Assembly: GCA_020638675.1 (NCBI GenBank)
Contig: JACKID010000001.1
Span: 2,051,261-2,115,260 of the forward strand
Origin: Planctomycetota bacterium
Lineage (GTDB): Bacteria; Planctomycetota; UBA8742; UBA2392
Length of the DNA stretch: 64,000 nt
Reading direction: 5' to 3'
Part shown: piece after piece, positions 48,957-58,782 of the stretch
How the letters are laid out: the number at the start of each line of letters is the position of its first letter
Position numbering within the stretch: position 1 is the first letter of the stretch
The notes under the pieces: generated by a model
What the model was told of the DNA's origin: nothing
What the model saw: the letters and a program-made list of their open reading frames with translations, nothing else
Databases searched by the model: none
Made by a program: the position numbers and the translations under genes

Positions 48957-49424
48957 ATGGCACTGTTTTCATCAACCTACCCGATTCGTTTCAGCGATGT
49001 GGACCACGCGGGAATCCTGTACTACCCGCGCTTTCTGCACTACTTCCACTGCTGCTTTGAGGACTTCTTCGAGCGAGGGCTGGGCATTCGTTACAGCCAC
49101 CTGCTCGACGTCGAGCGCATCGGCTTTCCCACCGTGCACATGGAGGTCGATTACCTGAAGCCGCTGCGCTTCGGCGACCACGTCGAGATCAGCCTCGGCA
49201 TCCAGAAGATCGGCAAGAAGAGCGTAACCTGGACCTACACCGGCGACACCGCGCGCGACAACAAGAAGGTCCGCGCCGTCGAGGCCAGCCTCGTCACCGT
49301 CTGCCTTGACATGGACTCTTTCACAGGCGTCGAGCTGCCCCAGAAGTACCACGACCTGTTCAAGAAGTGGCTCGTCCCTGACAGCCACCGAACCGGCCTC
49401 TACAAGGCCGTGAAGCCGGAATGA
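48957..49424 (+). CDS. Acyl-CoA thioesterase, hotdog fold (4-hydroxybenzoyl-CoA thioesterase/YbgC-like)
   Basis: 155 aa from the internal Met (MALFSSTYPIRFSDVDHAGILYYPRFLHYF) of ORF 48882..49424; 4HBT-family pattern with the catalytic Asp in SDVD. Confidence 0.75.
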   Translation: MALFSSTYPIRFSDVDHAGILYYPRFLHYFHCCFEDFFERGLGIRYSHLLDVERIGFPTVHMEVDYLKPLRFGDHVEISLGIQKIGKKSVTWTYTGDTARDNKKVRAVEASLVTVCLDMDSFTGVELPQKYHDLFKKWLVPDSHRTGLYKAVKPE

Positions 49425-49521
49425 CGGTTCCGTCTCTGCCGGGCAGTTCAGTCTCCGCCCATTGAGCCGCCTCTCGCGACTCCCGCACTCCAGCCGTCGC
49501 AGACGGCGCCTCACTTGATAG

Positions 49522-50155
49522 CCCCCGGTGGAGCGAAGCGAAACCGGGGGAATTCGTCGCCATCGGAATCCCGAGCCGGCTTGCCGGCGGCTCTCGTGTG
49601 GGCGCGGGCCCTCCCGCCCGATATCATCCGGTCATGGCCCACACGTACACGCGGCAGTTGCTTCATATCGTGTTCAGCACGAAGGACCGCCGTCCGCACC
49701 TTACGCCTGACAGACGCCCGCGCATGCTCGGCTATCTGCGTACGGTTTCCGAGGACCTTGGCGTCACGTTACTCCGATCAAACGGCGTTGAAGATCATGT
49801 ACACCTGCTGATCGACCTGCCGGCGTCGCTCAGCACGGCCGAGTTCATGCAAAAGCTGAAGGCCAATTCATCGCGCTGGTTTCGCAAGCAATTCACCGCT
49901 GTCGATTTTCACTGGCAGCGCGGCTACGGCGCGTTCAGTGTCAGGGAATCGAAGGCCGCCGACGTGTGTGGCTACATCGACCGGCAGGAACAGCATCACA
50001 AGAAGAGTTCGTTTGAAAACGAACTTCGCAAGCTTGTAGCAAGCCACGGGCTGGAGTTTGACGAACGCACCTTCCTTGAGTGATGAGTCGCCGGCAAGCC
50101 GGCTCGGGTCCGTTCTTACCTGCATACCCCCGGTTCCGCTGCGCTTCACCTGGGG
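49522..50155 (+). mobile_element. REP-associated tyrosine transposase (RAYT) unit with flanking inverted repeats
   Basis: Left side: hairpin cccccggtggagcgaagcgaaaccggggg (49522-49550) and cccgagccggcttgccggcggctc (49570-49593). Right side: gagtcgccggcaagccggctcggg (50085-50108), an inverted copy of the left repeat, and cccccggttccgctgcgcttcacctgggg (50127-50155), a near-inverted copy of the left hairpin arm. These enclose the RAYT gene. Confidence 0.7.
49634..50083 (+). CDS. IS200/IS605-family Y1 transposase, REP-associated (RAYT/TnpA-REP)
   Basis: 149 aa from Met13 (MAHTYTRQLLHIVFSTKDRRP); HuH motif DHVHLLI; Y1 catalytic Tyr near the C-terminus (GYGAFSV...Y). Confidence 0.8.
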   Translation: MAHTYTRQLLHIVFSTKDRRPHLTPDRRPRMLGYLRTVSEDLGVTLLRSNGVEDHVHLLIDLPASLSTAEFMQKLKANSSRWFRKQFTAVDFHWQRGYGAFSVRESKAADVCGYIDRQEQHHKKSSFENELRKLVASHGLEFDERTFLE

Positions 50156-50282
50156 CTATCGAGAGAACCGCCGTCTTCGACGGCTGACGGGCCGACCTGC
50201 CGGAGAGCAGCCTGTGCCGAGGCACGGAAACGTTCGACTTGCGTCCGGGGCTCCAGTTCCTTGAATCGATGCGCACGAGGAC

Positions 50283-56311: not shown

Positions 56312-56684
56312 CCCCCAACGCAAGTTTCCGCCCTATGAGCGCCACGTCTTCATCTGCCTGAACCAGCGCGAAGAGGGTCACCCGCGCGGCGATTGCACGT
56401 CGAAGGGCGCGCCGGAAGTTCTCGAGCGTTTCAAGCACCTCGCAAAGGAAAAGGGCCTGAAGCCGCATATCCGCGCGCAGAAGAGCGGGTGCCTCGACAC
56501 CTGCGAGCTCGGCGTAAGCGTGGTCGTTTACCCGGAAGCAGTCTGGTACAAGCAGGTGACGGTGCAGGACGTGGACGAAATCGTCGAGAGCCACCTTTTG
56601 AACGGCGTTCCCGTTGAGCGTCTTCGCATGCATCCCGCAACGCCCGGTGATTCCGGCAAGCACAGCCCGATTGGCAACGCGTAA
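56304..56684 (+). CDS. Thioredoxin-like [2Fe-2S] ferredoxin
   Basis: 126 aa; four Cys in a thioredoxin-like ferredoxin pattern (FICLNQR...GDCTSKG...GCLDTCELG). Confidence 0.65.
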   Translation: MTDPQRKFPPYERHVFICLNQREEGHPRGDCTSKGAPEVLERFKHLAKEKGLKPHIRAQKSGCLDTCELGVSVVVYPEAVWYKQVTVQDVDEIVESHLLNGVPVERLRMHPATPGDSGKHSPIGNA

Positions 56685-57349
56685 TGCCCGAGCATCTTGA
56701 TGAAGACCTCTGGTACCAAGTGTACCTCACGCGCAACGGCAACAACGTCCACGCCGGGCACTTTCACGTAGTGCGCACGCGCGACAGCGAAGGCCACCGT
56801 GTACTCGACCAGGAGATTGTGTTCCACGGCCCGGGCGTCGATCACGAAGCACGCTCGCGCATGGTGCTGGAACGCCGTGGGGGGCGCTACGTACCGCTCA
56901 GCGTGCGCTACACCGAGCCGAAGCTGGAATCGCGCATGAGCTTTGAACAAGGCCGTATCCACGCCACCGGCGCAGCGGAAGGCCACGACGGCTCGGCGGT
57001 GCCGGATGACGTGATGCCGACGTACGGCGTCGCGACACTGGCCAACACCATCTACAACCAGCCCGAGGCAACGCTGAACTTCGACGCCATGGTCGACAGC
57101 ACAGGCGCCATGTGCGGCCACGACGCCAAGCTGGTCGCCAAGGGCATGACGCGCAAGACGCCCTTCCCCACGCTTGACCCGCTGTGGGAAGTGCAGTGGT
57201 TAAGCAACGAAGGAACGCGCATCCAGGCCTTCTACTTTGACGACGAAGGAACGCTTGAGCAGGCCGACTGGGGCGGCACCGCGGCCCGCCTGGTTCAGAC
57301 GCAGGAAGACGCGACTCCGCCTTCAAAGTCCGGCGCCAAACCCAAGTAG
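56684..57349 (+). CDS. Hypothetical protein (catabolic-cluster member)
   Basis: 221 aa; start overlaps the ferredoxin stop; no domain recognised. Confidence 0.5.
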   Translation: MPEHLDEDLWYQVYLTRNGNNVHAGHFHVVRTRDSEGHRVLDQEIVFHGPGVDHEARSRMVLERRGGRYVPLSVRYTEPKLESRMSFEQGRIHATGAAEGHDGSAVPDDVMPTYGVATLANTIYNQPEATLNFDAMVDSTGAMCGHDAKLVAKGMTRKTPFPTLDPLWEVQWLSNEGTRIQAFYFDDEGTLEQADWGGTAARLVQTQEDATPPSKSGAKPK

Positions 57350-57363
57350 CCGACGGCATTTTC

Positions 57364-58782
57364 ATGAAGCTGTTTGAGCCACTGAAGATCAACTCCATGA
57401 CTCTGCCCAACCGGGTCGTGGTACCTGCGATGGTCACTCGCCTTTCGGGCGAGGACGGCTTCGTGAACGGCGATATCACCGACCGCTATGTGAGGTTTGC
57501 CAAGGGCGGCGCCGGGCTGATCGTGCTGGAGGCGATGGCCGTGCACGGCAGCAAGTCCGGGCCGCTGCTGCGCATCAGCGGCGATGAATTCACACCCGGA
57601 CTGCGCGAGTTGCGCCAAAAAATGAAAGATGCCGGGCCCGGTTGCGTCGCGCCGCAGATCATTCACTTCCTGAAGATCAGTCGCAGCGGCTGGCGGCAGA
57701 AAGTTGACGACCTAAGTATTGACGACATCCGCGCAATCGTCGACGCCTACGCCGCTGCGGCCGTTCGGTGCATCGACGCCGGCTATGACGGCGTCGAGCT
57801 GCACATGGCCCACGCCTACACGCTCTCCAGTTTTCTCAGCCGCATGAACAAGCGCCGCGACGACTACGGCGGCAGTTTGGATCGCCGCCTACGGGTGCCT
57901 GTTGAAGTTGTCACCGCTGTGCGCAAGGCGGTGGGGGACTTCCCGGTCGGCGTCCGCTTCGACGGCGAGGAGTGCATCAAAGGCGGCTACACGGGGGATG
58001 AGTCGAAGCTGATCGCATGGCGGCTGGTCCAGGCCGGCGTGGACTACGTCAGCATCAGCGCGGGCGGCAAATTCGAGGACGCCCAGCCCCGCGAGGGCGA
58101 GCCGCTGTACCCTTATACCGGCTACAGCGGCGACCGCTGCATGCCCGGCAAGACCTACCCGCCGGCGGCGAACCTGTACATCGCGGCCGGCATCAGGCTG
58201 TTCCTGCGCGAGCAGGGCAGCAGCGCGCCGGTGATCGCCACGGGCAAGATCAACACGCCCGAGCTGGCCGAGAAGATCCTGAATGACGGCCACGCCGATT
58301 TAATAGGCATGGCCCGCCCGATCCTGTGCGACCCGGACTGGCCGCGCAAAGTGCAGGCCGGTCACTTCGACCGCGTGATCCGCTGCTGCTACGCCAACGT
58401 CTGCAAGGCCAAGGACGAGCGCTTTCAGACCGTCAGTTGCTTCCTGTGGCCCAAGGGAGAAATCCAGGCGCCGCAGAGCGACGACAGCGTAGCGCCCCAA
58501 TGGCCCGAAGAAGGGGCCGGGCTGAAAGCCGACGGCAGCAAAGGCCGCATCGACCTCAAGTGGAACGCGGCCAAGGACAACGAGGGCGTCTACGGCTACG
58601 ACGTCTGGAGGGCCCTGGGCGAAGGCGATTTCGAGCGCGTGGACGCCGTGCCCGCACCGGTCACGGGCTACCACGACACCACGGCCGTGGCCGGCTTCGA
58701 GTACCGCTACTACGTGCAAGGCTACGACTACGCCGGAAACCGCACGCCCGCTTCAGGCATCCTCCAGGCACGCATTTCCTGA
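57364..58782 (+). CDS. Old Yellow Enzyme-family NADH:flavin oxidoreductase (enoate/2,4-dienoyl-CoA reductase-like) with C-terminal Fn3-like extension
   Basis: 472 aa. OYE TIM-barrel motifs (NRVVVPAMVTR, GAGLIVLEAMAV, ELHMAHAYTLSSFLS, GGSLDRRLRVPVEVV). The C-terminal ~100 aa (GRIDLKWNAAKDNEGVYGYDVWRA...YRYYVQGYDYAGNRT) look like a fibronectin-III-type beta sandwich. Confidence 0.8.
   Translation: MKLFEPLKINSMTLPNRVVVPAMVTRLSGEDGFVNGDITDRYVRFAKGGAGLIVLEAMAVHGSKSGPLLRISGDEFTPGLRELRQKMKDAGPGCVAPQIIHFLKISRSGWRQKVDDLSIDDIRAIVDAYAAAAVRCIDAGYDGVELHMAHAYTLSSFLSRMNKRRDDYGGSLDRRLRVPVEVVTAVRKAVGDFPVGVRFDGEECIKGGYTGDESKLIAWRLVQAGVDYVSISAGGKFEDAQPREGEPLYPYTGYSGDRCMPGKTYPPAANLYIAAGIRLFLREQGSSAPVIATGKINTPELAEKILNDGHADLIGMARPILCDPDWPRKVQAGHFDRVIRCCYANVCKAKDERFQTVSCFLWPKGEIQAPQSDDSVAPQWPEEGAGLKADGSKGRIDLKWNAAKDNEGVYGYDVWRALGEGDFERVDAVPAPVTGYHDTTAVAGFEYRYYVQGYDYAGNRTPASGILQARIS

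Follow-up and report, generated by a model that had tools for sequence, protein, structure and literature searches.

The aerobic 2-aminobenzoyl-coenzyme A (CoA) pathway has been known since the 1990s. Its gene cluster in Azoarcus evansii, abm, was reportedly described in 2001 by Schuhle et al. and is said to comprise a ligase, the 2-aminobenzoyl-CoA monooxygenase/reductase (ACMR), three β-oxidation enzymes, a MarR regulator and an L-PSP/'translation inhibitor' protein. We take the fused protein family that matches the model PRK08255 to include ACMR (abmA). In reviews, steps past the first two enzymes appear only as unspecified β-oxidation-like steps; the pathway is summarized in PMC4539516 and PMC3534580. 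Here, we analyzed a stretch of 64,000 nucleotides from Planctomycetota bacterium (assembly GCA_020638675.1, contig JACKID010000001.1, positions 2,051,261 to 2,115,260 of the forward strand), hereafter the window, which contains a cluster of twelve genes at positions 48957-58782. Comparison with related loci suggests that this cluster probably degrades anthranilate, derived from tryptophan by the kynurenine route, as its CoA thioester, by a variant of the abm pathway.

The source is an uncultured Planctomycetota metagenome-assembled genome: proteins 100% identical to CRE and OYE472 (defined below) are recorded at NCBI on a 3.09-Mb contig. The gene inventory was based on a listing of open reading frames (ORFs) and on Pfam/NCBIfam scans of the 64-kb window. 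All twelve genes were on the + strand, and the gene order, coordinates and overlapping stop/start codons given in an earlier annotation made from these letters alone (the original prediction) were borne out. Apart from a transposase gene, described below, the features are:

48957..49424, + strand: TE, 4HBT/YbgC-like acyl-CoA thioesterase (Pfam 4HBT_2, 3.1e-12; YbgC/FadM subfamily match below cutoff)
50283..51860, + strand: LIG, benzoate-CoA-ligase-family aryl-CoA ligase (TIGR02262, 482 bits, cutoff 375)
51860..52618, + strand: CRE, creatininase-fold metal amidohydrolase (PF02633, 8.6e-51)
52665..52710, + strand: conserved non-coding element in the CRE-SDR gap, kept in 10 Planctomycetota loci
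52716..53483, + strand: SDR, short-chain dehydrogenase (adh_short, 1.4e-53)
53483..53890, + strand: RID, Rid/YjgF-family protein (PF01042)
53893..54348, + strand: MAR, MarR-family regulator (MarR_2, 4e-14)
54345..55148, + strand: ECH, crotonase of PRK08258 type (NF006107/PRK08258, 378 bits, cutoff 330)
55115..56311, + strand: ACD, acyl-CoA dehydrogenase, ACAD (Acyl-CoA_dh domains; alternative start possible at 55151)
56304..56684, + strand: FDX, thioredoxin-like [2Fe-2S] ferredoxin (NF041613 and NF041612 at family level)
56684..57349, + strand: HYP, all-beta orphan protein without a Pfam or NCBIfam family
57364..58782, + strand: OYE472, OYE-family flavoprotein of 472 aa (PF00724, 4.7e-49)

Stop and start codons overlap at six junctions (LIG/CRE, SDR/RID, MAR/ECH, ECH/ACD, ACD/FDX and FDX/HYP), and the 97-nt CRE-SDR interval is the sole real gap among the pathway genes.

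CRE homologs were aligned, the alignment was used to fetch 80 genomic loci (numbered with the prefix L), and window proteins were mapped onto these loci by tblastn. ORFs of all loci were clustered via an ad-hoc gene caller, which was used for clustering only and cross-checked by tblastn. Counts for the LIG-CRE pair refer to 81 CRE-anchored loci, and family recurrence counts to the 75 loci whose CRE gene was called. In 67 of the 81 loci, from several phyla, LIG preceded CRE in the same orientation; the distance was 60 nt or less in 59 of the 81, mostly with overlapping codons. Seven of nine loci without LIG reach a contig end just upstream of CRE. Recurrence was also observed for ECH (36 of the 75 loci), SDR (33), RID (27), ACD (22) and MAR (16), in Planctomycetota, Micropepsaceae/Rhizomicrobium, Sphingomonas, Hyphomonadaceae, Acidobacteriota, Gemmatimonadota and Myxococcota. 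Because of this co-conservation, i.e., LIG-CRE adjacency and recurring families across loci, the gene grouping is a conserved operon, far beyond chance juxtaposition. The comparative genomics suggested in the original prediction thus showed co-conservation across phyla, and its view of the cluster as one CoA-dependent catabolic unit with a β-oxidation-like module is supported.

The full order in Planctomycetota was TE-LIG-CRE-SDR-RID-MAR-ECH-ACD-FDX-(HYP)-OYE. Four Planctomycetota loci (L007, L009, L011 and L013) contained TE-LIG-CRE without the SDR-to-OYE module within 10 kb, so that the cluster comprises two separable modules. In a tblastn search against plasmids, CRE had no match and LIG matched at no more than 42% identity, which is uninformative. 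In the genome of L009, an OYE homolog (P0159) and the CRE homolog (P0022) are both recorded on a contig of 4,122,760 bp, so that the two apparently share one contig at separate sites.

The relationship to the abm pathway was evident from Alphaproteobacteria. Eight of the eleven window families (LIG, CRE, SDR, Rid, MarR, crotonase, ACAD and TE) recurred there around a fused FAD-monooxygenase/OYE protein of 758-775 aa. A protein of 760-820 aa was present among these gene families in 27 non-planctomycetal loci. Its L082 representative consisted of FAD_binding_3 and Oxidored_FMN domains, and PRK08255 was covered end to end by the proteins of L063 (1214.7 bits, cutoff 1078) and L082 (1036.7 bits). 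The gene order in L063 was ACMR-SDR-MAR-ECH-ACD-TE-RID-LIG-CRE. In addition, crotonases of L082 (487 bits) and the window (378 bits) both passed the equivalog NF006107, LIG was 61-70% identical to ligases of ACMR-type clusters, and MAR was found in both ACMR-type and OYE472-type clusters. Linked β-oxidation-like enzymes, MarR and an L-PSP/Rid protein are thus all present in the window, and their orthology to ACMR-type clusters is shown by synteny and NF006107.

In common with the abm clusters of A. evansii, the window has a ligase of the benzoate-CoA-ligase family, MarR, L-PSP/Rid, enoyl-CoA hydratase, acyl-CoA dehydrogenase, a dehydrogenase and an OYE-type reductase function, and in both systems the intermediates would be CoA thioesters throughout. 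However, the window lacks the fused ACMR and the ABC binding protein; instead, it has a separate 472-aa OYE, FDX and the orphan HYP, as well as a creatininase-family gene and a 4HBT thioesterase. In alphaproteobacterial clusters that are otherwise orthologous, the corresponding position is held by the ACMR/SdgC family (PRK08255), in which an OYE forms the C-terminal half. Since the defining enzyme, ACMR, was looked for and was absent in the window, the cluster is best regarded, on these comparisons, as an abm-pathway variant with the key enzyme replaced and not as a full abm-type member. The hybrid aerobic aryl-CoA pathways of the Paa and Box types (PaaABCE and BoxAB di-iron epoxidases) are alike in CoA activation followed by non-oxygenolytic, crotonase-type ring opening, and in a proofreading 4HBT thioesterase (PaaI analog). 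A PaaA_PaaC-family protein adjoins the OYE in L077 and L087, whereas the window has no PaaA-like gene and no PaaB/C/E or BoxA/C homologs.

The substrate was suggested by more distant relatives. Full-length OYE472 homologs outside Planctomycetota occurred in Acidobacteriota/Blastocatellia (59-63% identity). Two acidobacteriotal loci, L083 and L089, each contained a single ten-gene operon, SDR-Rid-MarR-ECH-ACD-OYE-kynureninase-tryptophan 2,3-dioxygenase (TDO)-LIG-CRE, and the arrangements Rid-ECH-PaaA_PaaC-...-OYE-TDO-...-kynureninase and ferredoxin-OYE-...-kynureninase were found in L087 and L086, respectively. TDO and/or kynureninase (KYNU) were located beside LIG/CRE in eight loci (L054, L064, L075, L079, L080, L081, L083 and L089), e.g., in the orders LIG-CRE-TDO-KYNU (L064), CRE-TDO-KYNU (L075) and TDO-KYNU, divergent LIG, then CRE (L079/L080); in L074, kynureninase was approximately 9 kb from CRE. 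TDOs in these relatives are full-length matches to TIGR03036, under its cutoff, and the kynureninases carry KYNU_C/Aminotran_5. The best match of LIG in the PDB was anthranilate-CoA ligase 4WV3 (370.5 bits), followed by benzoate-CoA ligases (336 and 331 bits). These acidobacterial operon contexts, the 4WV3 match and the co-conserved deaminase-family protein point to tryptophan-derived anthranilate as the substrate, which the original prediction had considered not identifiable. If correct, this would assign tryptophan/anthranilate catabolism to abundant uncultured wastewater Planctomycetota.

Several observations count against this assignment. Genes for TDO, kynureninase, an ACMR-type monooxygenase and a PaaA-like protein were all missing from the 64-kb window and from 20 of the 21 Planctomycetota loci. 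The N-terminal domain of ACMR had no tblastn match in the window, and no ACMR-type monooxygenase domain was detected in any Planctomycetota locus. In addition, the name of the PRK08255 model is 'bifunctional salicylyl-CoA 5-hydroxylase/oxidoreductase', and our comparison with abm is one of family models, not of A. evansii sequences.

The ten-gene operons of L083 and L089 are bracketed by family-less proteins at the same positions: 159/166 aa upstream of SDR (L083 5902-6381, L089 5888-6388) and 227/228 aa after CRE (L083 15729-16415, L089 15752-16435). These proteins could be missing pathway components.

CRE was approximately 25% identical to Pseudomonas putida creatininase and scored below the equivalog cutoffs of creatininase (TIGR04448, 78.4 bits versus 235) and MftE (90.1 versus 172); its score with the IolN model was likewise below cutoff. 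Its residues E33, H35, D44, H119, E172 and H167 align with E34, H36, D45, H120, E183 and H178 of the P. putida enzyme, and these six metal/catalytic residues (H167 being the catalytic His) were invariant in 20 homologs. Because the metal ligands and catalytic His are aligned and invariant, CRE is predicted to be an active metal amidohydrolase of a distinct creatininase-fold subfamily, not a creatininase. It has the binuclear metal site and catalytic His in common with creatininase, MftE, ArfB and BrbF, but differs from these known enzymes in its pairing with an aryl-CoA ligase. This family already holds formamidases for N-formyl aromatic amines, namely ArfB and BrbF (PMC9478397).

Compared with the kynA-kynB-kynU pathway, relatives of the window place the CRE gene beside kynA and kynU, in the slot of an otherwise missing kynB (L064, L075, L079, L080, L083 and L089), and no cyclase-family formamidase was found among called genes of L083 or L089. 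KynB and CRE are both metal-dependent amidohydrolases; however, the fold of CRE is that of creatininase, not of cyclase/KynB or an α/β hydrolase, and kynA and kynU are not in the window. On the basis of this gene context, family precedent and the conserved metal site, we lean, with some reservation, toward CRE as an arylformamidase acting on N-formylkynurenine or N-formylanthranilate. CRE is thus a testable candidate for a new non-homologous arylformamidase that would fill the kynB gap in many genomes. No paper linking the creatininase fold to kynurenine formamidase was found in the searchable literature.

A possible but less probable role of CRE lies elsewhere: as a hydrolase acting after the ligase on a cyclic diketo/amide CoA intermediate, like the diketone-ring-opening IolN, as a lactam hydrolase of the isatin type, or as an amidase that supplies the ligase from N-acyl-anthranilates. 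The strongest argument for such roles, and one that tells against a formamidase, is that CRE tracks LIG (67 of 81 loci) far more than kynA/kynU (approximately 9). A weak IolN match and the lack of a thiolase or other C-C cleaving enzyme encoded in the cluster point in the same direction. They are opposed by the position of CRE at the missing-kynB slot, as in CRE-TDO-kynureninase of L075, and by the lack of a cyclase-family formamidase noted above for L083 and L089. In addition, the abm cluster of A. evansii reportedly works without a CRE-like gene.

OYE472 contains an ene-reductase site of the classical OYE/YqjM type. Its residues H147, H150 and Y152 lie within 'ELHMAHAYT', which aligns with 'ELHMAHGYL' in the chromate reductase 3HF3, and they were invariant in 21 sequences. 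The only invariant cysteines are C341, C347 and C359 (C-x5-C-x11-C), found where FadH carries its [4Fe-4S] motif; a shortened loop follows the 'QIIHF' strand, and a conserved insertion is present. Where FadH, BaiCD and 2-naphthoyl-CoA reductase (NCR) have FAD/NAD(P)H domains, OYE472 has a conserved FN3-like C-terminal domain of approximately 100 aa. The family label OYE in the original prediction, and its suggestion of C=C or ring reduction, are retained, with the three-Cys motif and the FN3-like domain as additions. This beta domain, at window 58482-58782 ('LKWNAAKDNEGVYGYDVWR...YYVQGYDYAGNRT'; PF25833 in some homologs), is kept across two phyla. The flavoenzyme is presumably cytoplasmic, and such a fusion is unusual for an OYE.

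OYE472 was 27-30% identical to the OYE half of ACMR, has no monooxygenase domain, and scored higher with FadH/BaiCD-type models (210 bits vs 148); matches to the BaiCD and FadH models reached only their N-terminal halves. Because of this low identity and the higher FadH/BaiCD scores, OYE472 looks like an independent recruitment, not a split ACMR. FadH, BaiCD and NCR resemble OYE472 in having an OYE barrel followed by a Cys-rich segment, and they act on CoA-ester substrates. However, OYE472 differs from the FadH/NCR type in having three rather than four conserved Cys, the FN3-like domain instead of FAD/NAD(P)H domains, and a separate ferredoxin as the likely electron partner. OYE472 and ACMR were mutually exclusive, never occurring together in one locus. 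In Planctomycetota and Acidobacteriota, two phyla that have been little studied, an Fe-S-type OYE stands where the textbook monooxygenase/reductase is found elsewhere, a natural replacement. Neither CRE as an arylformamidase nor an OYE472 module replacing ACMR is described in the searchable literature.

Apart from L086 and L087, every OYE472 locus had ACD just upstream of OYE; FDX separated the two, in some cases together with HYP or a PaaA-like gene. FDX accompanied OYE472 at each of its Planctomycetota loci, and also in L086. Its Cys residues 18, 31, 63 and 67 (C-x12-C-x31-C-x3-C) have the spacing of thioredoxin-like [2Fe-2S] ferredoxins (Azotobacter/Clostridium-like); scores with NF041613 (84 bits) and NF041612 (79.5 bits) were under the equivalog cutoffs, so that the assignment is at the family level only. 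PaaA_PaaC-family di-iron proteins adjoined OYE in L077 (Planctomycetota) and L087 (Acidobacteria), with 45.6% mutual identity (E = 6e-70). HYP had 12 homologs, all in relatives; a set of 1.84 billion proteins yielded 6 representatives with E<1e-30. HYP was missing from 7 of the 14 Planctomycetota loci with FDX and OYE. Its AF2 model (pLDDT 73.5) gave a weak best fold match (TM 0.41) among LolA/DUF1849/VioE-like half-barrels, and an exhaustive homolog search added PDZ-linked weak matches only.

HYP is unrelated to the PaaA-like protein of L077, though at the same position, and is also unrelated to the DUF3108-like protein of L087. The idea that ACAD might be a hidden oxygenase was rejected: its catalytic Glu and its CoA-type homologs are intact, and ACAD co-occurs with ACMR in several loci.

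We tentatively propose that OYE472 supplies the ene-reductase half of an ACMR-like two-step reaction, whose hydroxylase would be a di-iron enzyme in some lineages. The ten-gene operons of L083 and L089, which lack a recognizable oxygenase, are awkward for such a model of a missing hydroxylase. They encode every step from tryptophan on, and they lend strength to the alternative that OYE472, with or without the ferredoxin, dearomatizes anthraniloyl-CoA alone, without a separate hydroxylase, a possibility that we regard as doubtful. Two routes can be envisaged. One is oxygen-independent, with ring reduction, hydration by the crotonase and re-oxidation by SDR; it would be redox-neutral, since the ACMR product is formally anthraniloyl-CoA plus water. 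In the other, the OYE flavin would both hydroxylate and reduce.

The mutual exclusion of OYE472 and ACMR is consistent with OYE472 acting alone, and the three invariant Cys together with a dedicated ferredoxin suggest low-potential electron input. The crotonase and SDR also have counterparts in the anaerobic benzoyl-CoA pathway, namely its hydratase and dehydrogenase. However, thermodynamics make it very hard to reduce an electron-rich aminobenzoyl ring by hydride transfer, and thioredoxin-like ferredoxins are not especially low-potential. The O2-dependent TDO implies that the hosts are aerobes, OYE472 has the active site of an ordinary ene-reductase, and PaaA-like di-iron proteins adjoin the OYE in L077 and L087. 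If the replacement did work without a hydroxylase, it would represent new dearomatization chemistry. The combined proposal, with OYE472 (with or without FDX) as the dearomatizing enzyme for anthraniloyl-CoA without a flavin monooxygenase and CRE as a further non-homologous kynurenine/aryl formamidase family, is likewise unlikely.

RID has Met at the position of RidA Arg105 (PAMA vs PARS), and Met was kept in 9 of 10 aligned cluster orthologs; its TIGR00004 score was 41.9 bits versus a cutoff of 106. RID is a Rid-family protein but not an archetypal RidA, and the 'RidA' of the original prediction thus holds for the family only. Arg105 of RidA binds the substrate carboxylate. An Arg-less RID fits a substrate without an α-carboxylate, such as the enamine/imine 2-amino-5-oxocyclohex-1-ene-1-carboxyl-CoA. 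In anthranilate-grown Arthrobacter, a C7H8O4-CoA was reported, tentatively cyclohexanedione-carboxyl-CoA (PMC3534580). ACD is predicted to be a bona fide dehydrogenase because its catalytic Glu is kept in 'IYEGASEVQ' and its best PDB matches were 5IDU and 5JSC. We infer that SDR acts on a hydroxyacyl/oxo-cyclohexane CoA ester, and ECH as a hydratase or ring-opening hydrolase. In L063, L070 and L073 a TE ortholog forms part of the operon, whereas in Planctomycetota it precedes LIG; by analogy with PaaI, TE may clear dead-end 5-hydroxyanthraniloyl-CoA. The PRK08258 crotonase, Arg-less Rid, SDR, ACAD and 4HBT thioesterase form a defined core gene set for the poorly resolved lower abm pathway.

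In the pathway that we propose, CRE, as a binuclear-metal amidohydrolase, would deformylate N-formylkynurenine or N-formylanthranilate, as suggested by gene context and family precedent, and LIG, whose family supports the reaction and whose specificity is presumed, would make anthraniloyl-CoA. The ring would be dearomatized to 2-amino-oxo-cyclohexene-carboxyl-CoA, as ACMR does in the reference system. In this weakest step, OYE472 would carry out the ene-reduction half via its intact His-His-Tyr site, fed by FDX, together with a hydroxylating partner that is not encoded in the window. The Arg-less RID would hydrolyze the enamine/imine, releasing ammonia; the PRK08258 crotonase, SDR and ACAD would open and β-oxidize the ring; and the 4HBT thioesterase would free CoA from a dead-end or final thioester.

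MarR would repress the SDR-to-OYE module via a pseudo-palindrome in the CRE-SDR gap. This element, ACGCACTCATATTAATTGC (52665-52683), is followed by a 13-nt box, GAAACCTAAAGTA (52698-52710); both were conserved across 10 Planctomycetota loci and each was single-copy in the 64-kb window. The element had no Rfam family match, and promoter, terminator and Rfam scans gave nothing over background. The search for a MarR operator upstream of 52716, suggested in the original prediction, thus yielded 52665-52710 as a candidate operator/promoter of the SDR-to-OYE module, and its position fits the separability of the two modules.

Salicylate, lactams and alicyclic acids fit less well than anthranilate. 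Salicylate or another substituted benzoate, processed as in the Streptomyces salicylyl-CoA/gentisyl-CoA route with the thioesterase releasing a hydroxylated aromatic acid, is improbable. The name of the model matched by the fused enzyme of related clusters, the presence of a 4HBT thioesterase and the breadth of the ligase family are consistent with this route, but the crotonase, ACAD and SDR would be superfluous in it. Co-conservation of the Rid deaminase-family protein, linkage of tryptophan dioxygenase and kynureninase in at least 3 phyla and the use of anthranilate by the best solved relative of LIG also argue against salicylate. A new pathway for a lactam, N-heterocycle or aminated alicyclic carboxylate, as first proposed, is very improbable: a cyclic amide is the best-known substrate of the creatininase fold and the ACAD is about as similar to cyclohexanecarboxyl-CoA dehydrogenases as to other ACADs, but the ligase is of the aryl (benzoate) type, CRE is under the creatininase equivalog cutoff (78 vs 235 bits), and all comparative evidence links the cluster to ACMR and kynurenine genes. 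What stands from the original prediction is an amino-substituted substrate, with Rid plausibly acting on an enamine/imine; the lactam, N-heterocycle and alicyclic acid are disfavored, given that CRE travels with LIG and kynA/kynU, a pattern that suits an arylformamidase better than a lactamase. Nor is the pathway itself new, as the layout is that of the abm cluster known since 2001; novelty lies in the replacement of the key enzyme and in the creatininase-like partner.

The remaining gene of the cluster sits between TE and LIG, outside the pathway:

49598..50083, + strand: IS200/Y1-transposase (RAYT-like) gene (PF01797, 6.3e-26; NF033573, 74.5 bits, cutoff 55)

It had been labeled RAYT. The IS200/IS605 model was passed, whereas the RAYT model NF047646 reached 27.9 bits against a cutoff of 80. 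Within the flanking region (window 49510-50170), inverted REP-like GC-rich palindromes flank the transposase: the left-hand copy reads GATAGCCCCCGGTGGAGCGAAGCGAAACCGGGGG, and the right-hand one is its reverse complement. The insertion looks recent because a 93%-identical relative (L002) has none between TE and LIG. At another junction, seven Planctomycetota loci (L004, L005, L006, L008, L012, L014 and L018) contain 0.7-2 kb of extra DNA between LIG and CRE, which includes a 328-aa ORF without an NCBIfam family; the LIG-CRE junction may be an insertion hot spot.

One Planctomycetota locus, L010 (ACE_PLA33), carries the block that runs from cytochrome c to OYE in inverted orientation with respect to the flanking TPR genes at one end and Cupin_7/ABM/PPIase at the other. 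This inversion marks the block boundaries and indicates that the gene for cytochrome c (window 48078-48875) travels together with the cluster. Downstream of OYE, the window encodes a ChrR-type Cupin_7 protein (1.1e-23; 59218-59565, - strand) and an HmuQ-like ABM-domain protein (59601-59960, + strand). The Cupin_7 and ABM families both include cofactor-light oxygenases. Both genes were rejected as cluster members; they stay with the flank in the L010 inversion and are confined to Planctomycetota. Upstream, window 43982-48041 contains three paralogous secreted TPR-containing proteins (approximately 400-450 aa) before the cytochrome c gene, and these TPR-protein genes are kept upstream of the cluster in most Planctomycetota loci. 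Finally, GC content falls to 0.55 at window 40001-42000, compared with approximately 0.63 elsewhere, over minus-strand ORFs 40251-41234 and 41259-41765, and this segment may be foreign DNA.

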